Positions 23,601 to 63,617 of a stretch of DNA of 64,000 nucleotides are shown here, piece after piece. The notes beneath the pieces are model-generated. The model searched no databases. It was not told the DNA's origin and saw nothing but the letters and a program-made list of their open reading frames with translations. The DNA is taken from IMG/VR virus record IMGVR_UViG_3300027586_000003, positions 32,001 through 96,000 of that record. The stretch is one strand, 5' to 3'. Each line of letters starts with the position of its first letter. Position 1 is the stretch's first letter. Source of the DNA: a virus. The position numbers were made by a program, and so were the translations under genes.

Positions 23601-25167
23601 CCATCATTAGCCGCGAGCCATTCTGAAAAACGATTCCCGTCGGCTTTACTAACAGGTGGTTTGCCCCGTCATAAGTATCTATGCCGTCGAAAATCACCAT
23701 CGTCCCCTTGGAATGGTCGGCGGATAGTTGCACGCCAAGTCCCCAACCCGAAAGCTCGGAGTCGTGGCCGCCAGTGGATTCGGCTATAGTGACCGATGCG
23801 TCGGCGGCCATTGCACCGCCTGAAAGTTTTAGGTATCTTGCATCACCAAGGCTGTTGAAGTCGGTGATTCCGTATCCGCTGATGGTGGTGGGCGTGCCAG
23901 TGAGAGTTGCCCACGCCTGCGTGCCTGTGTGGTTTGCGCGGTCAAGCAGGTTCCCCACAGTGCTGCCTCCGTCCGACACCAGCTTGCCGGTGGTTCCATT
24001 AAAAACCACAACCCGAAGATTTACTGCCGATGAAGGCCCAACAATGTCTCCGGCCCCGTCGCCGGTTGCCCAAACACCATCACCACGGAGGTATGTGTTT
24101 GATGTCGGCGTCCCAGTGCCAAGTCGCGCCACGGCAATCACTCCGCTCACAACGTCCGCAGCCGCGTGCGTGTGGCTTGCTGCCGCAAAATCACCAGCGG
24201 CATTGAGTGCGGCACTGCCAAGGCCCAAGGTCGTTCTCGCAGCCGTCGCGCTCGTCAGGTCGGAGAGATTGTTTGCAGCCGCAAGGTAGCTCGAAGTCGC
24301 CGCCGTTGCGATTGTGCCGAGTCCAAGATTGGTTCGCGCCGTGGACGCACTTGCCAAATCTGAAAGGTTGTTAGTTACCGCAAGGTAGCTGGAAGCCGCT
24401 GCCACCGCTATCGTTCCGAGTCCAAGGTTTGTCCGAGCCGTGGACGCGCTCGCCAAGTTAGAAAGATTGTTTGCCGCTGACAAATAATCCTCCGCCGCCG
24501 CCCTAGCCATCGTTCCGAGTCCAAGGTTTGTCCTCGCATCTGACGCGCTGGTTGCACCAGTGCCGCCTTTAGCTATCGCAATCGCTGTTGCAGACCAAAC
24601 TCCGGTTAAAACAGTGCCAAGCGTTGCAACTTGCGTTGTGCCAGTCCAAGTCGAAAGTGCGGTGTTTTCAACATCGCTAAGGCTCAGGTCGCTTTTGGTG
24701 AGCGATACTGCCCCGATGTAGCCGTTGACCGACGAAACTTTGTCGGTGTTGTCCACCTTCTGCCAAGTTGATCCGCTGAAGATAATCCAGTCGCCGACAG
24801 ACCAATCGCTCTCGCCGTCAATCGTGGTGGCTCCAGCAACCGATACCTTGTAGTAGTAACCTGCCGTTCCGGTTGCTGAAACGATGGCCGGGCTGTTCGT
24901 GTTGGCGTTCCAAGCTCCACGGTAGTTCAAACCGCCAAGTGCCGCCGCTGGCAACTGAGCCGTCGCAATTTTACCGTCAGCGTCAAGCCCGCATAGACCG
25001 CCAGCCACATTCCTTTGAGCCTCCGCTGGAAACTGAACCGATAAAACCTTCCCGTCGCTGTCGAGTCCGCAAATGCCACCAGCCACATTACGCTTCGCGT
25101 CAATGCGGGCATCAGCCTGCGTTGAAAAATCAAAAATCTGCCTAGCGAGCGGTTTGGTTTCAGCCAT
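17668..25167 (-). CDS. Long tail fibre protein (2499 aa)
   Basis: GLD.DGK repeats, YRGAWNA.TN.P module, NNLSDLASASTARTNLGLG repeats, multiple GNVGIGTTSP beta-helix repeats. Confidence 0.85.
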   Translation of the reverse strand: MAETKPLARQIFDFSTQADARIDAKRNVAGGICGLDSDGKVLSVQFPAEAQRNVAGGLCGLDADGKIATAQLPAAALGGLNYRGAWNANTNSPAIVSATGTAGYYYKVSVAGATTIDGESDWSVGDWIIFSGSTWQKVDNTDKVSSVNGYIGAVSLTKSDLSLSDVENTALSTWTGTTQVATLGTVLTGVWSATAIAIAKGGTGATSASDARTNLGLGTMARAAAEDYLSAANNLSNLASASTARTNLGLGTIAVAAASSYLAVTNNLSDLASASTARTNLGLGTIATAATSSYLAAANNLSDLTSATAARTTLGLGSAALNAAGDFAAASHTHAAADVVSGVIAVARLGTGTPTSNTYLRGDGVWATGDGAGDIVGPSSAVNLRVVVFNGTTGKLVSDGGSTVGNLLDRANHTGTQAWATLTGTPTTISGYGITDFNSLGDARYLKLSGGAMAADASVTIAESTGGHDSELSGWGLGVQLSADHSKGTMVIFDGIDTYDGANHLLVKPTGIVFQNGSRLMMGTTDLGIGANKGISLRCSIDYELNWQAGWLTAYGQDGTTEQDIWLRSSLAFGGNAAKTVGMNRHTTSDTAGNSLTMKAGGASNGATNKHGGWLTLSGGISTGTGVSGLAFSAAPGSSSGTADNAPIEAMEVTALRTWVRRLDIRSSAASFDLQIGSDETLTGHRKLAVFLGNANRELTVSGNSDINGNFSGTSSGTNTGDNSANSLYSGIITFPGFGTSGATACVGNDSRLSDARTPVGTALTSANILVGSGSNVAASVAVSGDVTITNAGVTAIGAGKVTNSMLDGSIANAKLSNSAVTIGSTAVSLGATAATVAGLTLTSPTINGGTFTGTPTAPTAIGGTNTTQIATTAFVGAAVSLAVTGLLELKGSADCSTNPYYPAGSVGDTYYVTVAGKIGGASGIVVDIGDTYICQTDNAGGTQSAVGASWFILEHNLVGALLSANNLSDVASASSARSNLGLGTLATQSGTFSGTSSNTNTGDVTLAGENYLSISAQVITAAAVNLSGTHVTGTLADARFPATLPALSGVNLTALNATNIASGTLPAARMPALTGDVTTVAGAVATTIANSAVSLAKMADVATASVFYRKTANAGAPEVNTLATLKTDLGLTGTNSGDQTTIVGITGTKAQFDTAVSDGNILYVGDAVTGVTGTAPVVSSGGTTPAISIPAATAAVAGHMTAAAMTKLDGIATGANLYVHPNHSGVVTSTADGATAIADAALSIAKTSGLQSALDAKQPLDAALTALAAGSDFVQFTGPITSTKIFTLPDASSTLLFSGGALGTPSGGTATNLTGTASGLTAGNVTTNANLTGDVTSVGNATTIGALKVTNAMLEGSIAYSKLVLTGEILDADLAGSIAASKLVGTDISTVGTLSAGEIPTTLLTGTITNAQLAGSIDLTTKVTGVLPIANGGTNASTDSGARTALGLGTIATAAATDYLPLTQSAIPTSFVDLLGNTRAAITKLNYTITGPVTNSTSTGLVEMVTVAATLGTGGSHNYYGKWIQTVVPATNSENLNAVYASLMYNYHYGTGTLQNCYGTYSLAAQALGAGAVTTLVGAIVNASAQASSGVTNQTGLHIAANRSTSVGGTTADRRAIHISALSSGGTITDTYGLYIGSQTAGTQTNLPFSIYSVDANAKMYHAGNVGIGTTSPGNKLSVNTPVAASEASVFITQDGSFNGKGLLVRRSAVAQVVAPVFAVEDSVGNAYFQVGADGSFSGSNGLSSGIFTIGQGGGGPYLKLNFNGGTKHYRLGTDDAQFYIHDEAAALRRLVISAATGNVGIGTTSPGAKLDISSSFPTVPIPLKVTDQSGYGIYIGNRNQLNFDYGLDADTTSGNSGGINYTGYNGGTTRFRSLTVFDGKQNAIAFFDGSTRKVGIGTASPGAQLQVNAGAAGTIGSIIKLAASATANALEVQNSSGTVLAKINSAGSLHIAISPPDNTGTVYGIRSVLTGGANNNLVAGYFSSIGASSNYGLMVVGAVDITGDTLVQGVINTRSTKSSTLGNLFVGENPTNGVYAAGNGGTIVFGGSTAGQGAVDTTFASIGGVKENSTYMNSLGALVFGTQSTTAGQSVLATVTEKMRITSSGNVGIGTTAPDKVCEINLGPSSALRLTYNDANGSATTYMDTTVSSVGLTTFTAAGSAPSFTFANAVAMAASKALTVATGDNYGLKFSGGGTIEEYSNYMVLSAPYTGFIFYSPQTGTNVLTTDNTSATFLIDVAMGAAKTFYWAGTGCSMTGPAALNLVAYQNFDFTTSGGSGRKVFTIENTGVIRSYYAYTNASNYQRFSINQTANSFTLAAETAGTGAANIDVIIAPAGTGKVGIGTTSPANTLHVFSSGFPARFEKSGGHNVQLANVSNSPYWQFLNSANNAVVAAGLDAASLNLGRGNVQIIGADAPATVTIPARLYVVGDGTNPAAIFNTGKVGIGITIPTSTLHVVGDSNLGGFIVSSAGLLTAGTVPVARITGLTNLEAIYNSMMN

Positions 25168-29232: not shown

Positions 29233-29664
29233 CTACACTGTTCGCGGCCCGAACTTGGCATCCAACTCTTTCAGATACGCCTCCATCTCCGGTGACTGCT
29301 CCCACACCGTCCCGTCATCCGGCACAAGGCGGCGGTCAACATCCTTCGGAAACTGCGTGAAGCTCGCTACGTCATTCGGCGTTGGCAACAATTCGACAGC
29401 CCGCGCCGGGTCATCCATCGGCACCACGGACAGATTGTAGTTTCCGCACAGCCTGATAAGGCTGTCGCAGAACAACTCCGGCTCGTCGGTGATGTCCACG
29501 CTCCGCTCGCTCTCCGGGTCAAAAAAGTCCTGCTTGACGACCATTTCCGTCGCGGCGGTGTCCGTCCAGCGCATCCTGCCGTCCGGCAGAAACTCAATCT
29601 CACCAGCCCAAATTCTCGCCTGTGTTTCACGCGAAAACTCCTGAATTTGAATGTGACGGCTCAT
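29233..29664 (-). CDS. Acidic hypothetical protein translationally coupled to the kinase gene (candidate immunity/partner)
   Basis: ATGA overlap at 29661-29664; Asp/Glu-rich, 143 aa. Confidence 0.55.
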   Translation of the reverse strand: MSRHIQIQEFSRETQARIWAGEIEFLPDGRMRWTDTAATEMVVKQDFFDPESERSVDITDEPELFCDSLIRLCGNYNLSVVPMDDPARAVELLPTPNDVASFTQFPKDVDRRLVPDDGTVWEQSPEMEAYLKELDAKFGPRTV

Positions 29665-31355
29665 GGTGCTCTCAGTCTAGCAAGGAAATTATCCGCATCT
29701 TTCGTCCCATGCGCCGACTTGCGCATCGCCTTGAAAAAAGTCGGGTTTGCGCCGCCGCTGGCATGAAGCATGGGTTGCAGATTAGCCGCACGCTGTTTCA
29801 TTGTCGAGACTGAACCGGGCAACAATCCATGCGTTGCTCCAAAGGTGTCAAGCCACGTTGCGAATTCTGGAGAATTTACTTTTCTTGAAAGCTCTGAAAC
29901 TCTCCGGTCTGCCGCTGCATCCATCTGAACCTCGTGCGCAAAAACCATCGCCGTAGAGACGTTGCCCCCAACAAGCCCGGTGTGCTCGTAGGTGTGGTGG
30001 CTCTCTGGCAACGTCAATCCGTGGTCAATTGGATGAAGCCTTCCAACCTTGTCAACCATCATGTTGCCACTATGTCGGTCAGTGTTTCCAGTGATGTAGT
30101 CAAGCACTGCCAACTCCGCCAACCTAGACTTGTCATTATCCCAAAGTTTCGGCCAAAACTTCTTTGCGCGAACCTCATCCCCGTAAGCGTTTTTGGTAGG
30201 CACTGAATCAGGATCGAAGTCAATCAACGATTGCAGTGAGCCTTTCTTGCCGTCCACTATCACCATCGCTGTTATGGAATGCTCAATCCCAAGTTGTTTT
30301 GCAATATCGTAGGAGGCAACCTCACGCTTCGCGCCGCTAACTGCACGATCATCAATGTTCGATCTGGCACCCTTACCTTCACCCGATTCCGGCTTGAAGA
30401 CGCCTTTCGTAACGGTTCCGTCGGCTGCGGTAGCCTTCAGAATGAAAGACTGGCTGTAGTTTTGCCTGCCGCCCAACTTGTCCAATTTTCTTGTGGTTGA
30501 AGTTGCAATATCGCCCGCCACTTTCTGCTGTTCGGCGTGAATGTTGGATTGGAAATTTCCGGGTGTGACTGGCGCAATTGGCTGCGCTGCCGGGGCGGCT
30601 TGGGCTACGGGGGCCACGGGGCGCATCGAATTTCGCTCCATGTGCGCTATCACGTCCTGCTGCCACCTTTTAATCCGTGGGGCAGCACCGTTCAGATTCA
30701 CGCCGCGCACAGCAGCCACGTCGTTGCGATAAATCGCCTGATTGATTGCGGCGATTCCAGCCCTTCCGATTGGTGCGTGTGCCTGTGGCCTAATGACTGG
30801 CGCACGCGGTGGCAGATGTTGCGCCGCTGCTTGCCGTGCAATAATCGCCGCTTGGCCTCGCAACGGGCCAGCCGCCGGGGGTTGCACTGCTGCCTGCCGT
30901 GCGATGTCCGCCGCGATTTTAGCGTCACGGACGGCCTGTGCGTTGGCTTCGGCGGCACGGGCGTTGTGTTCGGCCACAATGACCGCCCGGCGGGCGTCCT
31001 CTGGCGACGGAACTGGCAATGGGGCCGGTCGCTGAATCGCCGGGCGTGCGGCCTGCGGCGGTGGAGCCGTGTCCGGTCTGCCGGGGAGCGCACGGCGAGG
31101 GGGCCACTCGGCTGACATCGGATTCGGTTTCTCAACATCCGCCACCCGTTGCAGCCTGCCGCCGACCTTGGCGTAGTGCTTCCTGCCAAACTTGGGTATC
31201 TTCCCAATATCGCCTTGATTACCAGCCCCAGCCCCGACGTGGCACTTCAGGTCGCCTGCGATGAATCCGTCGCCGCACGCCTTACCACCACGCACACGGG
31301 CGTTTGCCAGCGTGCGTGCCGTGCGAACAATCTCGGCGTATGCTTGGTTGAGCAT
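29661..31355 (-). CDS. CG-tag cargo protein with C-terminal PI3/PI4-kinase-like (HipA-like fold) domain
   Basis: GVFKP, REVASY, GSLQ, LDYITGNTDRH.GN, IDHGL motifs; start set at MLNQAYA (31355) by identity to the N-terminus of the adjacent paralog. Confidence 0.8.
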   Translation of the reverse strand: MLNQAYAEIVRTARTLANARVRGGKACGDGFIAGDLKCHVGAGAGNQGDIGKIPKFGRKHYAKVGGRLQRVADVEKPNPMSAEWPPRRALPGRPDTAPPPQAARPAIQRPAPLPVPSPEDARRAVIVAEHNARAAEANAQAVRDAKIAADIARQAAVQPPAAGPLRGQAAIIARQAAAQHLPPRAPVIRPQAHAPIGRAGIAAINQAIYRNDVAAVRGVNLNGAAPRIKRWQQDVIAHMERNSMRPVAPVAQAAPAAQPIAPVTPGNFQSNIHAEQQKVAGDIATSTTRKLDKLGGRQNYSQSFILKATAADGTVTKGVFKPESGEGKGARSNIDDRAVSGAKREVASYDIAKQLGIEHSITAMVIVDGKKGSLQSLIDFDPDSVPTKNAYGDEVRAKKFWPKLWDNDKSRLAELAVLDYITGNTDRHSGNMMVDKVGRLHPIDHGLTLPESHHTYEHTGLVGGNVSTAMVFAHEVQMDAAADRRVSELSRKVNSPEFATWLDTFGATHGLLPGSVSTMKQRAANLQPMLHASGGANPTFFKAMRKSAHGTKDADNFLARLRAP

Positions 31356-31364
31356 TTTTTGGAA

Positions 31365-31390
31365 ATTAACTAAGCCGCTTGCCATGTCAA
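31365..31390 (-). promoter_or_regulatory. Candidate late-type promoter TTGACA-N14-GTTAAT
   Basis: Shared motif and spacing; ATG follows within 10 nt. Confidence 0.45.
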
Positions 31391-31416: not shown

Positions 31417-32355
31417 CTATGTCACCATGCGACTGACTCTTGCAGCCGCCCATGTTTGCCCCGCGTCTCCGCCCCACAATGCCCACGCAATGCGGCCTGC
31501 GGAGGGAAAGCCATCTTCATTAGGCGTAAAACCTTGCCCCTTTTTATCAACTTCGTGTCGCGCAAAAAACGAGTGCATCCGCTTAACGGTGTCGTCGGAA
31601 AGATTTGATTCGTTGCTAATGTCCCTAGCGCGAGCAACCCCGACCTCGGTTCCTCCTCGGTTGTGTTCTCTGCGCCAAGCCAGACCGCGAGCGGCTTCCT
31701 CAATCATGTCTTTGCTCGGCTTGTTCTGAGATTTCTCAAACTCGGCAGAGTTGTTGAATGACTCGCCGCACGGTTGCCCGCTGTTCGCCAAGGCAACCGG
31801 CCCGTCGCACGCCGCCATCAATTCATCGAAGCTGAACTTGCCACGGTTCCGTAGCTGAACGTCCCGCTCAGTGACGCCGCCGACCAAGTTCTTAACCTGC
31901 TTGGCGAAGTGCAACATCTCGTCGAATCCGCGACTCGCCGCGTCCTTGATTGAGTCGTAGCTGTTGTGGAACATGGCTTTTGGAATCTCGTCCACGACCT
32001 CTAGCAGCGTCGCCCTGAACGTCTTCTCCATCTCTGGAATGGTGAACGTCTTTTGATGCTCGGCCAGCACTGCCTCTGGATTCTGTTCGTAGGCGAACCT
32101 CGCCCCGGCCCGCGTGTTCTTGCTCGCCACGACCATGAAAACCCGCTGCGTGCCGCTGGCGTCCTTTGCCTTGAACGTGACCGCCGCCATTCTGGCTGTC
32201 TCAGGCACGTCCACTCCGAGTTTGTCGCCCTGACCGGCGTGGCACTCTTTGTCCGCTGCTATGAAGCTGTCACCGCACGCCTTACCACCACGCACACGGG
32301 CGTTTGCCAGCGTGCGTGCCGTGCGAACAATCTGGGCGTATGCTTGGTTGAGCAT
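31417..32355 (-). CDS. CG-tag two-module head-associated protein
   Basis: One full and one partial tag; C-terminal RGLAWRRE.NRGGTEVGVARARD...KRMHSFFARHE...IAWALWGGDAG domain seen in phage head-region proteins. Confidence 0.7.
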   Translation of the reverse strand: MLNQAYAQIVRTARTLANARVRGGKACGDSFIAADKECHAGQGDKLGVDVPETARMAAVTFKAKDASGTQRVFMVVASKNTRAGARFAYEQNPEAVLAEHQKTFTIPEMEKTFRATLLEVVDEIPKAMFHNSYDSIKDAASRGFDEMLHFAKQVKNLVGGVTERDVQLRNRGKFSFDELMAACDGPVALANSGQPCGESFNNSAEFEKSQNKPSKDMIEEAARGLAWRREHNRGGTEVGVARARDISNESNLSDDTVKRMHSFFARHEVDKKGQGFTPNEDGFPSAGRIAWALWGGDAGQTWAAARVSRMVT

Positions 32356-32370: not shown

Positions 32371-35300
32371 TTAGGATTGCTGCGATGTAAACGCGAGTTC
32401 CGGGTGTTCGTCCGGCTCGTCAGCGCGATTCTTCATCGCCTCCGATTCTTCGAGAATCTTGGCACGAACCTGCTCCGGCGTGACCTCAAAGTTTTTTTCC
32501 AGCACCCAATCACGGACGGACGCCTTGACCGCCCCGATTTGAGTCCCCTTGAGCTTGGGAGCCGCAGCCATAATGTCCTTGCCGGTGAACACGGCTGAGA
32601 GCCGCTTTTCCATCTCCTCTTTCTTGCCGAACTGCTCAACCAAGCGGTCGGCACGGCCCATCTTTTTCTCGAAATCCTCCGCCTTGAACAGCGCACCACG
32701 GGACGCTTCATCGCTGCGCATGACCTCTCGCAGCAGCGGCCAGTTCTTCTCCTGCCGGAACCGCAGCGCGAGCCTGTCGCTCACCGCGTCGAAGTTGTGG
32801 CCGACCATGTGGTGTTCCACCGCCAGCGCAATCGCCTCTTTCTGCTCGTTGCTGAACTTCAACCGTGCGGCTGCCTTCTCCAAGAGCGGGATGCCAGCGG
32901 CCTCGTGCGCGATGTAGGTCGGCTGGCCGTCCTTCTCACCACGGGTGGTGGCCTTGCCGATGTCGTGAAGCAGAATGGCGACGTTCGTTGTCGCATCATT
33001 GGTGTTGCTGGCCTTGACCGCCTCCAAGACGTGCTCATACACGCCGCCCTCCGGGTGGTGCTTCGGGTTGTGCGGCAGTCCACGCATCGCCGCCACCTCT
33101 GGCAGCGTGTGCTCCAGCAGCCCGGCCTCGCTCATCACCGACACGAACTTCGCCAGCGACTTGCCGTTGTCCGCCGCCTTGAACACCTCGTCACGGATGC
33201 GCTCGCCGGAAATCGTGGCGACTGACGGAGCCAGTTTCTTCATGGCGTCCATCGTCTTCGCTTCAATGTCGAAGCCCAGCCGACCGGCGAACCTCGCCGC
33301 CCGAATCATCCGCAACGGGTCTTCAGTGAACCTTGCCTCCGGGTCGCCGACGGCGCGAATCACCTTGGCTTCTATGTCGGCTTTGCCGTTCTGCGGGTCA
33401 ACCAAGTTGCCTGCGGCGTCCATCGCCATCGCATTGATGGTAAAGTCACGACGCTTCGAGTCTTCATCGAAGCTGCCCGCCGCCGTGACAGAATCCGGCC
33501 TGCGCTGGTCGGTGTAAGCCCCGTCCGTGCGGAACTGTGCGACCTCGAATGTGTGGCCCTCATGTGGAATCGCCACAATGCCAAAGTCTGCGCTGTTGCC
33601 GATTTCGTGCGAGCGGAAAGCGGACTGCAACTTCGCTGCGGGCAGCGGCGTCGCAATGTCGAAGTCCTTCGGCGTCTTGCCCATCACCATGTCTCTGACC
33701 GCGCCGCCGACAATGAGCGGATTCGTGCCGGGGAACTGCCGTTCAATCTCACCGAGGATGGACACGGCAGCCTTGGCCTGCGGGTTCGACTCAGCCATCT
33801 CTTTCAATCCGCCGCCTTCCTTGGGTGCGAACTTGCCGTCGGCGGCGCGAGGGTGAAGCGACTCCTCAAACTCGCCGGAGTTACTGATTTTGTTGCTCGA
33901 CTTGTTGAACCGTTTAGAGAGCGGGATGACGTTGCCTTGGTCGTCGCGGGTGATGGGGTCGGCGGATTTGATTTGGGAGGGGCTGAAGACGACAGTGACA
34001 TTGCTCGTGGCTGTCTGCCCCCCTTCGACTACGTTGCTTACCTTGAGAGAATCATGCCCGCGAGTTTGGGCAATGCCTGCGATGTCTCCTATGTCGCTGC
34101 GAGTATTGCCGTAGGTTACATCATACCACTGGGAGCCTTTTGCATCGACTGACAGCGGGTTATTAGTTTTAAGAAACACCTCCATTTGTGGCAGGTCGTT
34201 CACCGGAGAGTCTGCAAAGTATATCCCGTCACCTACGTCGTTTGAAAATTCAGTGAACTTCTTATCTGTCCCGTGATAAGCCTTGGTGCCATACCCCGCC
34301 GCCTTCGCCGCCTCATCCACCATCTTCTGAGCCGTGAACGTGTCGCCCGACGCCACCGCGCCTGCGTAGGCCGCGTCCTGCTCAGGTGTGACCCCCACAT
34401 GGCAAGTGTCGCCGGACTCAATAAAGCTCTCGCCGCAGGGCTGGCCGCTGTTGCTGATTTTGTTGCTCGCCCTGTTGAACCGTTTAGAAAGTGGGATGAC
34501 GTTGCCAGCGGAGTCGAACACAACAGGTGAAGACGACTTTATCCTAGCGGAGTCGAAAACAGCTATCTCCCTGCTGCGAGTTTTCACTTCACCAAGCCCA
34601 CCAGCCGTCATATATCCACTGACAGAATTGAATCCTTTTCTTATTAAGTCATCAATGTCTCTGCTAGATATGTTACTTGAAGACCTTATCCCGTCTTTAA
34701 CTGTTGCCGTTCGCCCCAAGTTGACAAAGTATTTTACAGGCTTCATCATACCAACACCAATGTCTGTGAACTTCAAAAGCCTGTTTGAATCTTCAACCGT
34801 CGGTGTTAGATAGACTGCTTTCCTATACGTTGTTTTTCCAACGCCTTCAGATGGCTTGTAGTCGTCCGGCAACTTGCCAGCGTCAACCGCCTTGACCCAA
34901 GCATCGGCCCCGTGCTTGGCCGCAAAGTCACCCCAAACCTCATTCTCAATCGAAAGCGGTGTCCGTGGATACTCGGTTTGAAAAACCTCAATCGGCGACC
35001 CATTTCTGGTTCGATGGTAGGCAACCGTGTAGCCAGCCGCCTTCGCCGCATCGTCCACCATCTTCTGAGCGGTCACAGTGTCACCCGCCGCCACCGCACC
35101 CGTATAGGCTGCGTCCTGCTCCGGCGTAACTCCGACGTGGCAAGTGTCTCCGGCTTCGATGAATGAATCACCGCACGGCTGGCCGCTGTTGCTGATGTTC
35201 CTGTCGCCCTTACTCCATGTGCCACGGTTGAATGCCGATTTAATCTGTTCAGGACGCAATGCGATGTAACTTGTGCCTTTGGACTCGCCCTTGTTATCGT

Positions 35301-38300
35301 AAATAACACCGTCGTAACCAATGCTGTTGAGCCACTTCACGTTCACGAGCCATCGCCCCTTGCTGCCATAGGTCGAGTTCTCGTTCAGTTCATCAATCCA
35401 TTCTTTGTGTTTGGATTTAGAGATTACCCCTTCGTTGAACATCTTGTTGTGAACATTGTGCCAATCAAAATCATCCAGCCTTAGTGGGTTTTTTATGCTG
35501 ATATAAACAGGCTTTATGTTCGCGCCTTCGGCGTAGGCTGGGTTTTCGTATCCTTGAAAGAATCGGCTTCTAAAGTTGTAATTTATGATGTCGTTTGCCT
35601 GCTGTGCCGTTCCGAAATGCGAGCCTAAACCTTCCTTTACCCTTCCAAACTCCGTGAAACCAGCATTGGTTCCGTGATAGACCACAAGCGGCTTCCCGTC
35701 CTTATCCACAACCTTCGAGTCTCCGAACCATTCCTTGAACTCAGGCGATTCTGTGCTGGCGGGCCTGAGTGCTGGCGCGGTCTGGCCTTCACCTTCACCA
35801 ACATGGCACGTTTTGTCTGCGGAGATTGACGACTCACCGCACGGCTTGCCGGTGTTTCTGTTCAGCATCGGTTCGTCACGATTCGCCAGCTTCTTCGGCG
35901 CAATGCCCATCTCCTTTGTGAACTTGTTTGCCGCCTTCAACACATCTTTGATGTCCATGTCAATTCGGCGCGTCTTGATTTTTGTGTCGCCGAACTTTCC
36001 GTCCTTCGCATCCAGCCCAATCTTCGCCGCCCAGCGGTGGTGCCCATCAATCACATAGCCATCACGCGACACGAAGATGGAGTTCTCATCAAGGCCGACC
36101 GCCTTCTGACCCTCCGGCGACATCATAAACGCCACGTTGCTGCCCTTCAACTCGCTCTGCGACGCTTTCAATGAAGAAGCAGGTTGGTCAATGTCTTCGG
36201 TCTTGACGCCCTTCTTTAAGAGGCTCTGAACGAACGCTTCGCCGACATTAACCTCGCCCGCTTTATCCTTCGGGAAATTTTTCTCATCGTCCACGGTTGA
36301 ACCTTTTACCGGAAACCCAGCCAGTTGCGGCATCTCGGAGCGTGGAATCGGCTTACCGTCGTCGCCCTTCAATGACTCGCCGCAGAACAGGTTGGTTCCC
36401 GGCACGGACACCTTGCACAGATTCAGGTTTACCTTCTCGCCGCTCTTCTTAGCTTCGTTAGCAAACTTGTGGATTTCCTCAATTGCGGTGTTGACCTCTT
36501 TCACGCTTTTCAGAACCACGTCACCACCGCCTTTAAGCGCAGTGACCGCCGCCTTGCCAGCCTCCTCTTCCGCTGTGGCCTTCACCGGCTTCTCCTCAAC
36601 CGCCTTGACCGCAGCTTCCGGTGCCTTCGGCGATTCAGCCGCCTTGGCCGCTTCCGGCTGTGCGCCAAGATACTCGCCTATCTTGTCGGAAAGTTTGCGC
36701 GACGCGCCGATGGCTCGCTGTTGCTGCTGCAAGGCGTGAAGGACTTTCAGTTCCTTCATCTTGTCTGTGTCAGGAAGAGCCTTCGCTGTCTCGACGTGCG
36801 CCTTCAACTCGCCAAGCAATTTGCCAACCTCTTCGATGCTTTTCGGCTTCACCATCTTGATTTGGCCGGACGCTGCCATTGTGGACATGGGCTTGGCACC
36901 CGCAGAATCCGTCTTGCCCGCCTTATCCGCCTTCGGAGTCGCCGCCACCGCCGCCGTGACCGGCGCATCCTTTGTCGGGGCTGTCTCGCCAATGTGGCAC
37001 TCCATTTCCTCGCCGATGAATGACTTGCCGCACGCCTTGTTTTCCAGTGTGCCTTCGCTGTTCTCCTTGACCAACTTCGCAATCTGTTCGTGCATCTCCT
37101 CTGCGGACACACCACGCGGGAATATAAAGCTCACGCGCCCGCCCGGAGCGGCATTCTGCAAGCGAATCTCCGCCATCTTGCCAAGGTCGAAAATAGCGAG
37201 TTCCTTCAACTGCTTGGCCTGCTCCATTGCGCCGCCGACCGCCTTGTGAATCTGAACCACGTCCAAGAAAATCTTGCCGCTCACCTTGTCAAACCAGCCG
37301 CCCATGTGCGCCAGAGGGTCTTTCTTCAACGTCTCTGCCGCCCGGTCGAAGAAACCCTTCACCGCCTTGACGGAAAGCTGCTTGGCGTTCAACACCACCT
37401 CTAAATGCTTGTAGGCACTGACTGCGAAGCCGGACTTTGGAGACTTGTTCTGAGCCGGTTCGTAGGTGAAGCCGCCTGACTTCCTGAGCTTCGTCACCAA
37501 CTGCTTTCCCTCTGCGTGTGAGAAGTCACCTTCACGGCACGTCTTGTCATCGGAAATGAAGGACGCACCGCATGGCTTGTTCGACAGCGCATCGTCTTCA
37601 ATCCACGGTGCGTCGTTGTCCAGTTCTTCGCTGACCGGCTGCGTCGTGTCCTCCATCTTCAACCACGCCTTGAACTCGTCAACCGTCATCGGCGTCACGT
37701 CGCCGACCCGCTCTGCACCGCGACCGTCGCTGAATCCCTTATGATATGTGCTGAGTGCGGTGAACAGGTTCGGGAACGCCAGCATGACCTTGTGTTCGTC
37801 AAAGTCACCCGTGTTGGCATCCACTTGGTCAATCACAAACACCTTGCTGGAATCGGGTGCGTCGCCGAGATACACGTCAACCTCATCTCCGTCGGCTCCC
37901 TCAGTGTCAATGACGTAGCCATACGAAGCTGGCATCACCGTCGCCCAAGTTTCCCCTTCACTGTTCGTCCCACTACGGACGCCGCCCTTGGGATTCTCGA
38001 CGCTGATTGACAGGCCGTTCCACGTCGCCTCGCCCTTCAGGTAGTTGCCGGACTCTTTCTGCGCATCCGTCGGAGCCGCCGCCACCGTCACCGGCTGGCC
38101 TAGCACGGTCGCTGCCACTATGTCGGTGCGGTTGTTGAACTTGCTGTTGTTGCTATTGAACCGCTGGGAAAGCGGAATCACACTGCCAGTATCATCACGA
38201 ACAACCGCATCACTTCGCTTGAATTTTGAAGTGTCAAAGATTGCAATATGCCTTCCGGTCGCTCCCGGCCCGTCGTGTATCGCCGCCGAGAATCCAGCCT

Positions 38301-39009
38301 TCAAAAGTCCAGCGGCTACGCTGCCATACCGACGCTCCAGCGAGATAAGCGGCAAAGCGTCAGTCACAGTTCTTCCGAGAAGTGTTCCGACGGCACCCGC
38401 AACTTCCGGCGTTATTGGCTTTGTCATGTCAACCACACGACCGCCAACGTAACCGGACGCAACTCGGCCAGAGGCAAGTTGCGCTGGATTCCAAGAGCCT
38501 TCCAAGGTCGCATAAATCGCGGGGCCAAGCACCGCTCCTTCCCTTGACTTTGAAATGTCGAAGTCTGCAAAATTAGCATTGGTTCTGTGAACAGCCGGGC
38601 CAACCGTATATCCAGCCGCCGCCGCCGCTTCATCCACCATCTTCTGAGCCGTGGCCGTGTCACCAGACTCCACCGCCTTCGCATACGCCGCGTCCTTCTC
38701 CGGCGTCACCCCAACATGGCAAGTGTCGCCATCCTCAACAAATCCAGCCCCGCACGGCTGGCCGTTCGTAAGCCGCTCAAACGAGTTTGGAACGCTAACC
38801 GCAGGATTAGCCCATTCACTCACCCTGTTCGCCCACGCGCCAGCCTGACGCGCAGGCGGGCCATTCTGGATGAACTCTTTGAACGCAGCACCTCCGGGAA
38901 GGACGGATTGCAATACTTGGCGGGTGACTGCCGCCGGAAACCGGGAGCGGTTCAGGAACGCAACCACCTCACGAACCCGCGTAGCGTAAATAACGGAGGG
39001 GTTGTGCAT
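32371..39009 (-). CDS. 2212-aa polyvalent polyprotein: ART-PolyVal x4, inorganic pyrophosphatase, unknown module, ParB/Srx, CCA-adding nucleotidyltransferase with HD domain
   Basis: YHGT..F..F/G.YF/KNPL/QIKS ART-PolyVal patterns; GNYLKG..ISVENPKG..RSG..YGY..GADGDEVDVY InPase; IDGHHRWAA ParB; VGGAVRD..DFDIAT, EDSKRRDFTINA, EDPLRMIRAARF, HHPEG, LLHDIGK for CCA-HD. Confidence 0.85.
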   Translation of the reverse strand: MHNPSVIYATRVREVVAFLNRSRFPAAVTRQVLQSVLPGGAAFKEFIQNGPPARQAGAWANRVSEWANPAVSVPNSFERLTNGQPCGAGFVEDGDTCHVGVTPEKDAAYAKAVESGDTATAQKMVDEAAAAAGYTVGPAVHRTNANFADFDISKSREGAVLGPAIYATLEGSWNPAQLASGRVASGYVGGRVVDMTKPITPEVAGAVGTLLGRTVTDALPLISLERRYGSVAAGLLKAGFSAAIHDGPGATGRHIAIFDTSKFKRSDAVVRDDTGSVIPLSQRFNSNNSKFNNRTDIVAATVLGQPVTVAAAPTDAQKESGNYLKGEATWNGLSISVENPKGGVRSGTNSEGETWATVMPASYGYVIDTEGADGDEVDVYLGDAPDSSKVFVIDQVDANTGDFDEHKVMLAFPNLFTALSTYHKGFSDGRGAERVGDVTPMTVDEFKAWLKMEDTTQPVSEELDNDAPWIEDDALSNKPCGASFISDDKTCREGDFSHAEGKQLVTKLRKSGGFTYEPAQNKSPKSGFAVSAYKHLEVVLNAKQLSVKAVKGFFDRAAETLKKDPLAHMGGWFDKVSGKIFLDVVQIHKAVGGAMEQAKQLKELAIFDLGKMAEIRLQNAAPGGRVSFIFPRGVSAEEMHEQIAKLVKENSEGTLENKACGKSFIGEEMECHIGETAPTKDAPVTAAVAATPKADKAGKTDSAGAKPMSTMAASGQIKMVKPKSIEEVGKLLGELKAHVETAKALPDTDKMKELKVLHALQQQQRAIGASRKLSDKIGEYLGAQPEAAKAAESPKAPEAAVKAVEEKPVKATAEEEAGKAAVTALKGGGDVVLKSVKEVNTAIEEIHKFANEAKKSGEKVNLNLCKVSVPGTNLFCGESLKGDDGKPIPRSEMPQLAGFPVKGSTVDDEKNFPKDKAGEVNVGEAFVQSLLKKGVKTEDIDQPASSLKASQSELKGSNVAFMMSPEGQKAVGLDENSIFVSRDGYVIDGHHRWAAKIGLDAKDGKFGDTKIKTRRIDMDIKDVLKAANKFTKEMGIAPKKLANRDEPMLNRNTGKPCGESSISADKTCHVGEGEGQTAPALRPASTESPEFKEWFGDSKVVDKDGKPLVVYHGTNAGFTEFGRVKEGLGSHFGTAQQANDIINYNFRSRFFQGYENPAYAEGANIKPVYISIKNPLRLDDFDWHNVHNKMFNEGVISKSKHKEWIDELNENSTYGSKGRWLVNVKWLNSIGYDGVIYDNKGESKGTSYIALRPEQIKSAFNRGTWSKGDRNISNSGQPCGDSFIEAGDTCHVGVTPEQDAAYTGAVAAGDTVTAQKMVDDAAKAAGYTVAYHRTRNGSPIEVFQTEYPRTPLSIENEVWGDFAAKHGADAWVKAVDAGKLPDDYKPSEGVGKTTYRKAVYLTPTVEDSNRLLKFTDIGVGMMKPVKYFVNLGRTATVKDGIRSSSNISSRDIDDLIRKGFNSVSGYMTAGGLGEVKTRSREIAVFDSARIKSSSPVVFDSAGNVIPLSKRFNRASNKISNSGQPCGESFIESGDTCHVGVTPEQDAAYAGAVASGDTFTAQKMVDEAAKAAGYGTKAYHGTDKKFTEFSNDVGDGIYFADSPVNDLPQMEVFLKTNNPLSVDAKGSQWYDVTYGNTRSDIGDIAGIAQTRGHDSLKVSNVVEGGQTATSNVTVVFSPSQIKSADPITRDDQGNVIPLSKRFNKSSNKISNSGEFEESLHPRAADGKFAPKEGGGLKEMAESNPQAKAAVSILGEIERQFPGTNPLIVGGAVRDMVMGKTPKDFDIATPLPAAKLQSAFRSHEIGNSADFGIVAIPHEGHTFEVAQFRTDGAYTDQRRPDSVTAAGSFDEDSKRRDFTINAMAMDAAGNLVDPQNGKADIEAKVIRAVGDPEARFTEDPLRMIRAARFAGRLGFDIEAKTMDAMKKLAPSVATISGERIRDEVFKAADNGKSLAKFVSVMSEAGLLEHTLPEVAAMRGLPHNPKHHPEGGVYEHVLEAVKASNTNDATTNVAILLHDIGKATTRGEKDGQPTYIAHEAAGIPLLEKAAARLKFSNEQKEAIALAVEHHMVGHNFDAVSDRLALRFRQEKNWPLLREVMRSDEASRGALFKAEDFEKKMGRADRLVEQFGKKEEMEKRLSAVFTGKDIMAAAPKLKGTQIGAVKASVRDWVLEKNFEVTPEQVRAKILEESEAMKNRADEPDEHPELAFTSQQS

Positions 39010-41478: not shown

Positions 41479-42063
41479 TTAAATGGAGTTTTTGATGGAC
41501 AGTTCCGTGCGTGCCTTATGGAAGGCGTCTCGGTGAGCCATACCCTTGTTGGAAAGCTGAATCTCGGTTGTCCGGTTGCGAATCCACGCGCTGTCAGAGG
41601 CGGGCATGGTGGCAGCGGAATCGCCGACGATGGATGCCGGGAGAGCGGAACGGTTGCGATTATGCAACGGGGCGGACACGGTGGCGGTGTCAGCCGAAGG
41701 AGCAGCGGGAGCCGACTTCAGGCCGGTGAGGAACTTATACGTCGCATCACGGTTGGAAATCAGAGACTCCTTTACGGAGGCGGCGTCGCGGATGACCGAC
41801 TTGAACGCTTCCACGTCGCGGTTGGCAAGCTCTTCGAGGAGGACAACCGTGCGGTTCTGGAGCGACACAATCCGCTCATTAGAAGCGGTCGTCTCAGCGT
41901 TTGCGACAGCGACTTCATCGCGTGCCTTGAGGATGGCATCGTCCATCTGCTCCTTGTAGCCGACCATATCCTTTTGGAAGGATGAGTTAGCCAAAGAGAT
42001 TTCCTCGTCAGTGGCCGAATTCGCCAGACCGAGCAGACTGATAAGTTGTTCTTTGTGATTCAT
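41479..42063 (-). CDS. Head scaffolding protein
   Basis: LLGL..SATDEEI start typical of Mu gpZ-like scaffolds; coiled-coil character; lies between protease and cement. Confidence 0.7.
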   Translation of the reverse strand: MNHKEQLISLLGLANSATDEEISLANSSFQKDMVGYKEQMDDAILKARDEVAVANAETTASNERIVSLQNRTVVLLEELANRDVEAFKSVIRDAASVKESLISNRDATYKFLTGLKSAPAAPSADTATVSAPLHNRNRSALPASIVGDSAATMPASDSAWIRNRTTEIQLSNKGMAHRDAFHKARTELSIKNSI

Positions 42064-42131: not shown

Positions 42132-43352
42132 TCACCGTGAAATAGGAGTTAGACCCTTTAGGTTTGGCTCATTAGTCAAAGCTACTGAATCTAGCACCAT
42201 TGGACGCAACTGGCCGTTGTCAAGTGTTTCGCAATTGCGCTTGAGCCATACTGGCGAGACGAGCCTATACCGCCCGCCGTTGACCGCCTTCTCGCCTACG
42301 TCTGTCCATCGCACCTGTCCCCACATACCGTCGTTACGCTTGGCAAGGTTTTCAATCCAGCCGCCCGCCTCCGATGGCTTATCGCCTGACTGAGAGAAGT
42401 GGTCAAAGTCCAGCAATGCTCCGGTGAAGTTTTTGTCGCTGGCCTTGCGGGCGGCAAAGTTCGCCACCATAGCGTCCACCGATTTTGCATCAATCAGTTG
42501 CACCACGCCGGTTGGATGAGGATGGCTGCCGAACGGTGCAAGGTGAATCCAGCCGTCGGATGGAACACTGAATCGGTTGTTCAGCTTGCTCACGGCTTCA
42601 ACGCAGATGCCAAGCCGGACTTCGGATGTGTTTCCGTAAATGGTTTTACTCCGCAGCGGATACATCACCTTCACGCCTGACGAGTCTATCCTTTCCTCGT
42701 TGCTTTGAAGCGCGACTGGGATTCTCGTCCCCTTCGCGTAGGTGTCCACCCGGTATCCCTGCTTGTATTTTTCGCCTTCGTTAATCGTTCGATGCGTCTC
42801 GTCGGTTGTGACAGAGCTTAGAAGCGGGAGTTTCAAAGAGCGGCGGATGAAATCAGGAGTCGGTATCCCGTGGTCGTCTGTCGGAGCACTCACGAACTTG
42901 CCATCACTCATGTATTGCCAAACGGGTTGCTTGGTTTCCGGGTTCCACGTTCTGACGGATAAATTAGCCCGGTCAAAATCGGAAATGTCATGCGAACCTT
43001 CACCGCCGACATGGCATTGATGACCGTCAGGGATGTGCGAGTCGCCGCACGGCTGCCCGTTCGCCAAAGCCTGCTCACCGCTCAGGCTGTGCATCGGAGC
43101 CACCGTGTCGCCCTGTTCCTGTTTCGTAGCGTCTTCCGTAGCAGCGGAATCAATCTCCATCCGGGGAACGGTCTTCTGCCGCTCCCGATACTCACGCTGC
43201 TTCGCTGACGCCGTGATGCGGGCCAAACGGTCAGGGGTCAGGTTGTGCTGCCCAACGGCTACCTTCTTGGCGGTGACGTGCTGAGAGACACGGGCACGCG
43301 ACGGCGCGGCGGTCGTCTTGGTGCTGGCACGGTTGAAGAGTTTGTAGAACAT
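42132..43352 (-). CDS. Mu-like prohead protease (gpI family) with an N-terminal extension carrying a CG tag
   Basis: WIHLAP.G, LDFDH, A.GWI, GQVRWT..G...V....YR.VSPV, SVALTN.PNL motifs. Confidence 0.85.
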   Translation of the reverse strand: MFYKLFNRASTKTTAAPSRARVSQHVTAKKVAVGQHNLTPDRLARITASAKQREYRERQKTVPRMEIDSAATEDATKQEQGDTVAPMHSLSGEQALANGQPCGDSHIPDGHQCHVGGEGSHDISDFDRANLSVRTWNPETKQPVWQYMSDGKFVSAPTDDHGIPTPDFIRRSLKLPLLSSVTTDETHRTINEGEKYKQGYRVDTYAKGTRIPVALQSNEERIDSSGVKVMYPLRSKTIYGNTSEVRLGICVEAVSKLNNRFSVPSDGWIHLAPFGSHPHPTGVVQLIDAKSVDAMVANFAARKASDKNFTGALLDFDHFSQSGDKPSEAGGWIENLAKRNDGMWGQVRWTDVGEKAVNGGRYRLVSPVWLKRNCETLDNGQLRPMVLDSVALTNEPNLKGLTPISR

Positions 43353-43355
43353 GGG

Positions 43356-45641
43356 CTACTCGTGCTTTTTTTGCCACTTCTCGCCAGCAATGCGTCGGCG
43401 TTCAATCATCTTACGAAATTGTGGTGAGCGAACACGGGCGTCCATCGCTGCCCGCTCTTCAGCGGTTCCAACTTGAACTGGCAGATGTTCGACTTTCACC
43501 ACCTTATGCAACTTCTCATTGCTCCGCTCAAACGGCCTGCCGAGATAATGCTTCTCCACATCTTCCTTAGTGCCGTTTATTTCTGTGGCGAAACTGTCGC
43601 CGCTGTCAAAGTGAACCTTCACGGCCCGGCGTTTGAAAACAGCGTCGTCCACGGAGGCTGGCGTTGCGGATTCTCCGACACGGCACGTCAGACCGGCTGC
43701 GATGTGCGAGTCGCCGCAGGGCTGTCCACCGGCACCAGCGTTCACAATCGTTTCGAGCGGTTCTGTGACGGAGCGGTTCTCGTGCTTTTCTTGCCATTTC
43801 TTACCAGCAATGCGTCGGCGTTCAATCATCTTGCGAAATTGTGGCGAGCGAACGCGGGCGTCCATCGCGGCCTGTTCAGCCGCAGTTCCAACTTGAACTG
43901 CCGATGGGCCGGGACTCGCTGTTGGCGGAGCCGCAACGGGCGCAATGTCACGCGCCTTCTTGCCCTGTTCGTAAAACTGCCGCATCCGCCGAAACGCAAT
44001 CTCTGTCATTTTGTCTGATTCAATCTCGCCTCGCTCTGTCGGCTCGCCTGTAACGGCGCGGTCGTAGCGGCGTCTCTCGTCCACCGACAAGAACCGCTTG
44101 AATGATGAGGCGTTGGCGGGAAGCGCAGCCTCAACCGGGTCGGTATCAATGTCATCGCCGCCAAGCGAAAGATGATGAACACCATCGCCATTACGCCGCG
44201 TCTCCCAAGATTTCCTCACACCCTCGCTCGTTCCCGCATTCGCTATCTTTTCCCGGTCTTTGTTCAGCACTTTGAAAACTTCTCCAACCCCTTCGAGGGA
44301 CTCAACGTGCAGGAAAAGTTCCGGCAGCTTTCTAGCCTCATTTGGCTCGGCGCGGCCAGCGGCCAATACGTGTCCAGCCCCATACTTTTTGGCAGTGAAT
44401 GTCTCCCTGCCAGACCGCTCAACCAATGCCTTTTGAGTCTTGCTAAGGCGGCACGTCAGACCGGCTGCGATGTGCGAGTCGCCGCACGGCTGTCCGCCAG
44501 CACCCGCATTCACCATCGCCTCCAGCGCATCATGGTAGCGGTTAGCGTAACCCGGACGGTCACGCTCAACCATGTGGTCAATCGTCTCCATCAGGTTGTC
44601 GGCATACACGTCGTCGCGCTTGCCCTGCGGCTTCCACTGGCCCATCCGCACCTTGCCAGTTTCAACCATATAAGTGTCGTTCGCCATGAGGCGCACCTTC
44701 ACGATGCCGTGACCGAGCTTGCCGCCGTTGACTTTGAACTGAACGCCGCCCCTCTGGTAGCCGCCGTCCGGTGTCGAGCCAGCGGGCATGATGGTAAGAT
44801 TTCTGGTGCCCCACGCCATTATAGCACTGCGGTCGGTGGCTTTGATTTGGTCAATAATCGTGGTGGCTATGTAGCGTTCCTCGTGCTTTTGATCGGTATC
44901 GGAATTAGGGGTTGTCTTCGGCTCGCTCTGATACGTTGGACGGGAACCGTCCCCGACACGGCATTGATGCCCATCGGGAATGTGCGAGTCGCCGCAGGGT
45001 TGAGAATTTGAATAGCGGCGAGGAGGTGGCAAGTCGGCGGATAGGTATTTCCCATATTTAGGGTGAGTTTTCTCCGAAATGATAACAGCACGCTTGTCGC
45101 CGTCACGTAATCGGTCAATACGCGACGATGAAGCATGAATCTCAACAATCTGGCCGTTAAACTTAACGTATTTCGCCCCATCCCCGAGAATTACCGCATC
45201 TATGCGAGCAATCTGTTTTGACGACTCTTGTGGAGCCGCGCCTTGACCGACACGGCATTGATGCCCGTCGGGGATGTGGCTGTCGCCGCAGGGCTGTGAG
45301 TTGAACAGGCTGCCGACGCTGTTGCTAACCGAGTGCGAGTCCTTCCACATCTTCCGCTCCTTGATTTCCTCACCAACCTTGGCGAGTCCTTCAAGCGAGT
45401 TCGGGTCATCCTTCGTGACGAGTGCGCTCTCCGAAAGTGACGCGAGACGCGAGTTTCGCATTGCGCTCATTGCCGCCCGGTAGCCGCCGTTCTCCATCTC
45501 TTCATCGTCGTCACCTTCATAGTCGTTGACGATCTTGGTGTCATAGTCGTTGACAATCTTGGTGTCGGCGGCTTGCTCGTCGTCGGCCTCACACTTGGCG
45601 CAGCCGCACCCGCCGTTAAACAGTTTGTAGAACTGTGTCAT
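43356..45641 (-). CDS. 761-aa CG-tag polyprotein of small uncharacterised modules
   Basis: Four QPCGDSHI-x5-CR tags, one GTSEG..KSWETRR tag, and an internal duplication of about 40 aa. Confidence 0.75.
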   Translation of the reverse strand: MTQFYKLFNGGCGCAKCEADDEQAADTKIVNDYDTKIVNDYEGDDDEEMENGGYRAAMSAMRNSRLASLSESALVTKDDPNSLEGLAKVGEEIKERKMWKDSHSVSNSVGSLFNSQPCGDSHIPDGHQCRVGQGAAPQESSKQIARIDAVILGDGAKYVKFNGQIVEIHASSSRIDRLRDGDKRAVIISEKTHPKYGKYLSADLPPPRRYSNSQPCGDSHIPDGHQCRVGDGSRPTYQSEPKTTPNSDTDQKHEERYIATTIIDQIKATDRSAIMAWGTRNLTIMPAGSTPDGGYQRGGVQFKVNGGKLGHGIVKVRLMANDTYMVETGKVRMGQWKPQGKRDDVYADNLMETIDHMVERDRPGYANRYHDALEAMVNAGAGGQPCGDSHIAAGLTCRLSKTQKALVERSGRETFTAKKYGAGHVLAAGRAEPNEARKLPELFLHVESLEGVGEVFKVLNKDREKIANAGTSEGVRKSWETRRNGDGVHHLSLGGDDIDTDPVEAALPANASSFKRFLSVDERRRYDRAVTGEPTERGEIESDKMTEIAFRRMRQFYEQGKKARDIAPVAAPPTASPGPSAVQVGTAAEQAAMDARVRSPQFRKMIERRRIAGKKWQEKHENRSVTEPLETIVNAGAGGQPCGDSHIAAGLTCRVGESATPASVDDAVFKRRAVKVHFDSGDSFATEINGTKEDVEKHYLGRPFERSNEKLHKVVKVEHLPVQVGTAEERAAMDARVRSPQFRKMIERRRIAGEKWQKKHE

Positions 45642-63168: not shown

Positions 63169-63218
63169 AGGATGGATTGATACTCGACGCGGTTCAACTC
63201 AGTCAACCGCAAAAGGAA

Positions 63219-63617
63219 TGGACACGGTGGGAGTCGAACCCACGTCCTACAAATGTTCAAACGTCACATCCACACGCTTCCCTTGACTGCCCGCCGTCGC
63301 AGCCCGCCAAGGATGGCTGTAGCGACGTTTTTGTGGGCTTGGATACGTCAGAGTGCCGCCCTTGCACCCCGCTCCGTCCTGCTATCTTCAGCGCATCGCC
63401 TTAGCAGGCGTCCAGCGTGCGCTGTCGGGGCTGATTAAGCCGCGAGAGCTTCCTCGACGAAGCCGAACCGTGCGAGAATCGCATCGGCCTCGGCCAGTGA
63501 GGGAGCCATGTCTAGTGCGTTAGCATTTGACTGGTGATTGGAGATTTAACGAGGCCAACAATCATCCTCGGCGTGTCGCGCCGTCCTAGTTTTCGTAGTC
63601 AAAACCATGACGTGCCC
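63219..63617 (-). ncRNA. ssrA: tmRNA
   Basis: 5' GGGCACG-TCATGGTTTTGAC pairs with 3' CGTGTCC-A including G3:U70; T arm GTGGG-TTCGACT-CCCAC; pk1-like GCCGAGG...GGCCTCG; tag ORF 63524-63435 ending EEALAA*. Confidence 0.92.

Follow-up and report, generated by a model that had tools for sequence, protein, structure and literature searches.

Architecture of the gene and its predicted CCA-adding module

We describe here a long gene, hereafter referred to as P0001, in a window of 64,000 nucleotides (bases 32001–96000 of the 105,001-base IMG/VR virus record IMGVR_UViG_3300027586_000003) from an uncultured phage. P0001 is a single unbroken open reading frame (ORF) of 2212 amino acids (aa) at 32371..39009 on the minus strand, and the stop of a 148-aa upstream gene abuts its start. 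From the N-terminus the encoded chain consists of a leader domain, an ART-like module (M1), an InPase, an unassigned module, a module with a probable ParB/Srx fold, three further ART-type modules (M2, M3, and M4), and finally a CCA-type nucleotidyltransferase (NTase) with an HD domain. With Pfam run on the complete protein as well as on its segments, we regard the architecture as mapped here as nearly certain, and the module order and approximate coordinates given by an initial annotation of the window agree with the ORF and the Pfam matches, with deviations of no more than a few tens of bases. The chain holds at least two unrelated effector domains and lies among virion/late genes, both of which are criteria for a polyvalent protein, and the results support a description of P0001 as a polyvalent-type multi-effector that has recruited a CCA/HD tRNA-repair module and that carries clade-specific tags at its junctions. 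All features of P0001 are given below in window coordinates and lie on the minus strand.

The terminal module is predicted to be a complete CCA-type enzyme, an assignment that we hold to be very probable. Its class II nucleotidyltransferase head (aa 1766–1885; 33355..33714) matches PF01743 with an E value of 4e-31 and contains motif A (GGAVRD..DFD, within GGAVRDMVMGKTPKDFD) and motif B (RRD, within RRDFTINAMA), with motif C also present in the module. Motif D (EDPLRMIRAARF), the neck/RNA-binding domain (aa 1912–1974; PF12627, E 3e-12), and motif E (GERIRDEVFK) lie at 33088..33324, and the flexible loop of the head, FRTDGAYTDQRRPDSV, aligns together with motif D to FRTESSYSDNRRPDSV of the solved structure 6ibp. 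The HD phosphohydrolase domain (aa 1980–2072, matched by Pfam over 2000–2072; 32794..33072) scores 27–30 bits with PF01966 against a cut-off of 22 and has the metal-binding motifs KHHPE, LLHDIGK, AHEAAG, and VEHHM; its score with the HDIG model TIGR00277 (23.6 bits) is under the cut-off of 27.6, and the region is similar to the body of the Aquifex class II enzyme 3wfo. The C-terminal tail (aa 2073–2212; 32374..32793) is colinear with actinobacterial CCA enzymes to approximately aa 2173. In class II enzymes CTP and ATP are templated by motif D (EDxxR) of the protein itself, and the addition of A requires the flexible loop; with all of the CCA motifs present, the module is therefore best read as a complete CCA-adding enzyme.

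The best NCBIfam models for the module are both CCA tRNA nucleotidyltransferases (NF009814 with 223 bits and TIGR02692 with 216 bits), the second being colinear with residues 31–453 of the 492-aa query over profile positions 15–450 of 466, compared to 169 (TIGR01942) and 105 bits for the PcnB poly(A) polymerase models. The best solved structures are CCA-adding enzymes as well (6ibp with 162 bits and 1miv with 157 bits, at approximately 50% identity over 200 residues), compared to 101 bits for the E. coli poly(A) polymerase structure, and the last 490 residues of P0001 match the tRNA nucleotidyltransferase family phrog_2244 with an E value of 2e-79. The initial call of a complete class II CCA-adding enzyme with an HD domain is therefore supported, as CCA entries rank above poly(A) polymerase in NCBIfam and the PDB, the closest PHROG is a tRNA nucleotidyltransferase, and the motifs are intact. 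The module shares its head-neck-HD body order, motifs A–E, and loop with bacterial class II enzymes (6ibp from Planococcus, 1miv from Geobacillus, and the HD forms NF008137 and TIGR02692), and differs from them in being the C-terminal module of a 2212-aa chain and in scoring under the equivalog cut-offs (considered below).

The N-terminal domain (aa 1–82; 38764..39009), a candidate capsid-targeting part with the leader SVIYATRVREVVAFLN at aa 5–20, has no Pfam or PHROG match. Four ART-PolyVal domains had been proposed initially, and Pfam confirms two of them at a gathering score of 31.2 bits for PF18760, namely M2 (aa 1102–1262; 35224..35706; E 1e-20, 75 bits) and M4 (aa 1540–1710; 33880..34392; matched at approximately aa 1575–1685, E 5e-10, 40.6 bits). 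The other two, M1 (aa 101–300; 38110..38709) and M3 (aa 1294–1520; 34450..35130), have no Pfam match of their own and are called ART-type by paralogy only: they are paralogues of each other and of M4, to which M1 is 37% identical (BLASTP E 1e-37) and M3 31% identical outside a shared N-terminal stretch (BLASTP E 1e-15), and judged by these alignments they are diverged members of the ART type.

The InPase (aa 315–451; 37657..38067) is the type I inorganic pyrophosphatase of polyvalent proteins and matches PF18823 over all of its profile (positions 1–135 of 135; E 8e-48, 162 bits against a gathering score of 26.8), and its region matches PHROG families named virion structural, minor head, and DarB-like. 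The initial annotation had viewed it as the CCA enzyme's own pyrophosphatase, driving that reaction. We rejected such a dedicated pair on co-occurrence, since 29 other polyvalent ORFs of IMG/VR that carry an InPase, some of them longer than 5300 aa, have no CCA module either within the ORF or within 10 kb, and two CCA-bearing proteins introduced below, P0004 and P0059, have no InPase (by Pfam scan for P0004 and by a precomputed Pfam list for P0059). The InPase is thus a general polyvalent module with no dedicated CCA partner, which may nevertheless help by removing pyrophosphate (PPi), as has been proposed in general terms (PMC5512222).

The unassigned alpha/beta module (aa 495–656; 37042..37527; GGFTYEP..GFAVS..GGWFD..FLDVV), recognized at the outset by its pattern GGFT..GFAV..GGW.D..FLDV, is real and conserved in relatives, with homologues found only in P0208, P0209, and close relatives. 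Its AlphaFold2 model has a predicted local distance difference test score (pLDDT) of 78, rising to about 90 in the core (residues 31–120). Nothing significant was found for it in Pfam or NCBIfam, the PDB sequence search gave only E values above 0.6, the ESM Atlas gave only unnamed viral clusters, and in the fold searches the best Foldseek E value was 0.1 and the best VIA-wide Z was 5.0, under the usual noise level. The fold may be a known one despite the absent match.

An Ala/Lys/Glu/Pro-rich linker (aa 675–819; 36553..36987), evident from the sequence and with helices that open the model of the segment after it, leads to the ParB/Srx-like module (aa 820–1045; 35875..36552; phrog_2859). This part of the initial annotation probably stands at the level of fold, from the model and its structural matches, and has no Pfam counterpart: searches of Pfam (including ParBc and DdrB-ParB), NCBIfam, and PDB sequences gave no match for the segment. 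The AlphaFold2 model, built from 31 sequences, has a pLDDT of 90, and rows 1–23 of the VIA comparison are all ParB-N, Srx, Noc, KorB, or serine kinase structures (Z 4.9–6.6 over 64–106 residues); Foldseek gave a probability of 0.99 but an E value of about 0.01. The 31-sequence alignment, assembled from short hits of the family, has DGHHRW (aa 988–993 of P0001) as an invariant motif. On the basis of the model, a ParB/Srx fold seems probable. The module is very common in phages, with 2700 library hits at E ≤ 0.001, and is also contained in a protein of 3.8 thousand aa annotated as “structural protein 5” in Pseudomonas phage Epa33.

Mosaic relatives and junction signals

Two close relatives of P0001 in the protein database, P0002 (2355 aa) and P0003 (2751 aa), are mosaics of it. 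Identity to P0001 is 92–93% in the CCA module, 72–82% from the InPase to the ParB module, and 61–66% in the N-terminal 82 aa, and the ART modules are swapped for others, including a 2H/Acb1-like domain, while the sequence of the CCA junction is kept. All three proteins have retained motifs A–E, the loop, and the HD motifs in intact form. Conservation is thus highest in the CCA module, and this, together with the retention of its junction, argues for function and against an artefact of assembly; since P0002 and P0003 come from independent assemblies with the same CCA junction, we rejected both an assembly artefact and a frameshift fusion as the origin of P0001. Three further proteins (P0060–62) are related over the N-terminal 460–495 aa or so, at approximately 60–66% identity. 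P0004 (1683 aa) combines ART-PolyVal with a CCA module of 37% identity, in which motifs A–E and the core HD motifs are kept and the flexible loop is divergent, and P0059 (1514 aa) has a CCA module of 28% identity and no match in viral or metagenome contig sets. These two probably represent further, independent lineages.

Every module of P0001 is opened by a hydrophobic-x-Asn (h-x-Asn) site together with either a Cys tag (CG.SFI.....CH.G) or, for the CCA module, the sequence EF-E..HPR...GKF. The Cys tag marks six module boundaries with the overall pattern N.(G)(K/Q)(P/A)CG.SFI.....C(H/R).G, and an h-x-Asn stands immediately ahead of each: GQPCGAGFVEDGDTCHVG after LTN (38710..38763), KPCGASFISDDKTCREG after LSN (37528..37578), KACGKSFIGEEMECHIG after LEN (36988..37038), GKPCGESSISADKTCHVG after MLN-RN (35797..35850), and GQPCGDSFIEAGDTCHVG and GQPCGESFIESGDTCHVG each after ISN (35131..35184 and 34393..34446, respectively). 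The junction that introduces the CCA module (aa 1708–1727; 33829..33879), noted initially as ISN-S ahead of the nucleotidyltransferase, is found as ISN followed by SGEFEESLHPRAADGKF and is of the HPR type.

The Cys tag occurs nine times in the record, six times in P0001 and three times at aa 24–37 of other proteins; the remaining proteins of the record have none, and the tag is also missing from the 29 other InPase-bearing polyvalent ORFs. Two of the tagged proteins are encoded by the next downstream genes on the minus strand, with 312 aa (31417–32355) and 574 aa (29661–31385), and the third, of 1097 aa (56408–59701, minus strand), lies beyond the head genes at a distance of approximately 17 kb. 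In all three the leader is followed by the tag in the form CG.[SG]FI.....CH.G. Comparison led us to reject the 312-aa protein as a paralogue of the ParB module, although both match phrog_2859. The 574-aa protein has, in addition to leader and tag, a PI3/PI4-kinase-like domain (PF00454, E 1.5e-11), and the 1097-aa protein likewise has both leader and tag. The leaders of the three proteins (approximately 20 aa, ending in L-A-N) are alike and resemble more distantly aa 5–20 of P0001 (Y-x-x-x-V-R...L-x-N). Because of the shared leader, tag, and h-x-Asn patterns, a common fate of the tagged proteins seems likely, and leader plus Cys tag can be put forward as a candidate for a shared cargo or processing signal.

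The HPR motif has a wider distribution. In a survey of proteins P0068–P0195 from the ParB-module search, to which P0059 was added, HPR...G.[FWY] was present in 28 of 148 ParB-module proteins, both at N-termini and between modules, in the form [WF]-[NDE]-[PE]-x-x-HPR-[DG]-x-x-G-[KR]-[FW], with three copies in P0059. Copies of it flank the CCA modules of P0003 and of the unrelated P0059. The motif has the appearance of a general signal for junctions or docking in polyvalent proteins, and a limited literature search found no description of it.

Directly upstream of P0001 on the same strand are a Mu gpI-like protease (42132–43352; PF10123, E 6e-20) and a scaffold-like protein, as well as a major head protein (match to phrog_1005, E 5e-25) and a protein with weak likeness to Mu gp36. 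These neighbours support the initial placement of a polyvalent-type multi-effector within a head-gene block. In the scaffold-like ORF of 194 aa next to the protease (41479–42063, minus strand), L, I, V, or M stands at position −2 of 10 of the 13 Asn residues (p = 4e-5), and in the 761-aa portal candidate (43356–45641, minus strand) of 12 of 26 (p = 9e-4), a pattern that would fit cutting after h-x-Asn by a head protease. Neither a megablast of the P0001 gene nor a tblastn of the major head protein gave any match among cultured phages. Downstream on the same strand are tail-fibre-like giant ORFs; among the giant ORFs of the minus strand, one of 3351 aa (3425–13480) has no PHROG match at E ≤ 1e-5 and one of 2499 aa (17668–25167) has only a weak tail-fibre match.

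The window also contains a gene for transfer-messenger RNA (tmRNA) at 63216–63617 on the minus strand, detected with Rfam (RF00023, 98 bits against a gathering score of 47, E 4e-37) and called by ARAGORN too, whose acceptor stem contains a G3:U pair and whose predicted tag peptide ends in ..EEALAA. The 3' end of the gene reads ...GUGUCCA followed by UUC, and CCA is not encoded. Across the 105-kb record as a whole, ARAGORN detected no gene for a tRNA. The tmRNA without an encoded CCA offers a substrate for a CCA enzyme within the phage itself, which is simpler than a target in host defence.

Proposed function and competing explanations

In T4, Alt and the internal proteins carry a short leader at the N-terminus; they are loaded into the prohead, cut at a short motif by the head protease, and injected. 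Packaging and injection have been predicted for polyvalent proteins, and T4 Alt is packaged in the phage particle (PMC5512222). By likeness to these, prohead loading and cutting by the head protease would be the natural reading of P0001, with the qualifications that T4 Alt and the internal proteins are an analogy with no sequence relationship, that the putative cut site of P0001 is h-x-Asn rather than the L/I-x-Glu of T4, and that it has many modules per chain. Gene position, the leader and tag, the h-x-Asn sites, and the annotation of relatives of other modules as structural proteins suggest that P0001 is packaged and processed, and we consider this somewhat probable. In the mechanism that we favor, P0001 would be made late, together with the head proteins, as a polyvalent precursor that its leader and tags route into the prohead, where the Mu gpI-like protease would cleave it at h-x-Asn sites into single modules that exit the capsid along with the DNA. 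The CCA module would then restore host tRNAs whose CCA ends are missing or incomplete, right after entry and ahead of phage gene expression, with the HD domain clearing 2',3'-cyclic phosphate, 3'-phosphate, and possibly pyrophosphate blocks, so that translation is kept running in spite of any trimming, blocking, or extension of tRNA 3' ends by host enzymes. The CCA module would also mature the phage tmRNA. Taken as a whole, this account of a late, packaged, and cleaved precursor delivering tRNA 3'-end repair is our best explanation, and we place it close to an even call, slightly on the doubtful side.

Attack on tRNAs by the host is emerging as a major anti-phage route, by cleavage of the anticodon arm, pyrophosphorylation of the CCA end, or extension of the 3' end, and the known phage answers (phage tRNAs and ligase/kinase repair enzymes) act by expression after entry. 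The toxSAS enzymes CapRel and FaRel2 pyrophosphorylate the tRNA CCA end, which is reversed by alarmone hydrolases (SAH) (10.1101/2021.04.30.441581; PMC9712102), and MenT toxins extend tRNA acceptor ends (PMC10435456). A counter-defence role for P0001 by repair of tRNA 3' ends is possible, and we hold it tentatively, with more doubt than belief. The fullest version of the proposal, in which a capsid-delivered CCA-NTase/HD enzyme, possibly helped by the InPase, reverses tRNA 3'-end immunity of the toxSAS/CapRel and MenT/AbiE types and arms the tmRNA by way of a leader/Cys-tag/h-x-Asn cargo system of at least four proteins, is distinctly unlikely. If true, a particle-borne CCA/HD enzyme would work ahead of phage gene expression and RNA repair would join the injected effectors, as the first pre-packaged RNA-repair counter-defence and with a previously undescribed cargo system. 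The delivery idea is directly testable on the 500-residue module, and the repeated junction signals (Cys tag, HPR, and h-x-Asn, of which HPR is widespread in polyvalent proteins) offer a route to learning how such proteins are loaded and cut.

Several observations weigh against our best explanation. Related CCA genes in IMG/VR (up to 50% identity) are stand-alone at 37 of 37 loci, with 340–557 aa, and at the single such locus considered for its surroundings (L003) the gene is apparently not among structural genes, judging by ORF sizes; CCA enzymes therefore normally act as ordinary expressed enzymes. No MuF, portal, or MPTase domain was matched by Pfam in the whole protein or its segments, although a MuF/portal anchor or MPTase domain is a frequent and non-obligatory feature of polyvalent proteins, and over the whole of P0001 h-x-Asn is not enriched (24 observed, 18.6 expected). 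The module does not reach the equivalog cut-offs of the CCA models (NF009814 with 223 against 290 bits, TIGR02692 with 216 against 439, and NF008137 with 177 against 451), an in-frame Met (aa 1738) lies at the start position of stand-alone enzymes, and the record is estimated to be 77% complete. Packaging, cleavage, and ejection are plausible steps that we infer. A less exotic explanation is that the CCA module serves for housekeeping or maturation inside the infected cell and is not a delivered weapon. It would be either released from a late polyprotein or started at Met1738, would have the tmRNA and any tRNAs in the missing 23% of the genome as substrates during the same infection cycle, and would owe its fusion to an accident of gene order. 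The tmRNA gene without an encoded CCA, the in-frame ATG at aa 1738, the prevalence of stand-alone genes in viral contigs, and the fact that stand-alone CCA enzymes are common in large phages for RNA repair and maturation (PMC7824862) all speak for it. However, the host CCA enzyme would normally be enough, late expression is badly timed for a maturation enzyme, and no convincing Shine-Dalgarno site lies upstream of Met1738 at the proper spacing; moreover, P0002 and P0003 keep the fusion and its junction while their middle modules shuffle, and an HPR-bracketed CCA module recurs in the unrelated P0059. On balance we judge this explanation to be rather unlikely, though one to be taken seriously.

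It is also important to consider other activities for the same domains. The HD domain, together with the InPase and, in relatives, a 2H/Acb1-like domain, could be the key activity and destroy second messengers or 2',3'-cyclic phosphates of type III CRISPR or of cyclic-oligonucleotide-based anti-phage signaling systems (CBASS), with the NTase as a binding scaffold. A 2H domain is indeed present in P0002 and P0003 (with weak Acb1 similarity in P0003), the viral protein P0041 combines Acb1/2H with CCA, and the InPase and 2H domains of polyvalent proteins have been proposed to target infection-induced nucleotides (PMC5512222). This explanation is quite improbable, however, as the catalytic motifs of the NTase are all intact and strongly conserved, HD is the usual body domain of many bacterial CCA enzymes, with the P0001 module colinear with TIGR02692 and NF008137, and no 2H domain is present in P0001. 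A poly(A) polymerase or other RNA-tailing enzyme, serving host RNA decay or the stabilization of phage RNA, might be suspected from the Pfam family name (PolyA_pol) and from the PcnB matches, of which TIGR01942 reaches 169 bits. We consider it very improbable, given that CCA models and structures score about 50–60 bits above those of poly(A) polymerase, that the loop, motif D (EDxxR), and motif E fit CCA-adding enzymes at approximately 50% identity over 200 residues, and that the closest PHROG is the tRNA nucleotidyltransferase family.

Comparison with polyvalent proteins and other viral CCA fusions

Like the polyvalent proteins of phages described previously (PMC5512222), P0001 carries many effector domains per chain, lies among virion genes, and has mosaic orthologues, and it shares with them the ART-PolyVal and InPase hallmarks and probably a ParB-type module; it differs in having no detected MuF, portal, or MPTase domain and in the clade-specific Cys tag at its junctions. 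A CCA enzyme is not listed as a polyvalent module in that survey or in later surveys by the same group, in which CCA enzymes appear only as stand-alone RNA-repair genes of jumbo phages. The stand-alone phage tRNA nucleotidyltransferases (phrog_2244; the jumbo-phage RNA-repair set of PMC7824862) belong to the same family as the P0001 module, which differs from them in being fused behind effector modules in a head-gene block instead of forming a separate gene. A CCA fusion in a polyvalent protein is unusual, as the initial annotation had remarked of a CCA enzyme embedded in a structural-region polyprotein, and the uniformly stand-alone state of the related viral loci bears this out.

CCA modules also occur inside other long multidomain viral proteins, of the P0034, P0019, and P0041 types, which resemble P0001 in this respect and differ from it in having no ART-PolyVal, InPase, ParB module, or Cys tag and a CCA identity of 34–40%. 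The P0019 and P0041 types include kinase, 2H/Acb1, and DUF5661 domains. P0034 (1735 aa, of a family of approximately 1700 aa) has an N-terminal cytidylyltransferase-like domain and a central CCA-NTase/HD module. Fusions of its type are abundant, with matches in at least 130 stretches of IMG/VR, from which 79 loci were retained. On one 276-kb contig (L068:7965-13172, plus strand), a gene of this type lies downstream of nucleotide-sugar epimerases and approximately 1.4 kb upstream of the terminase and portal genes.

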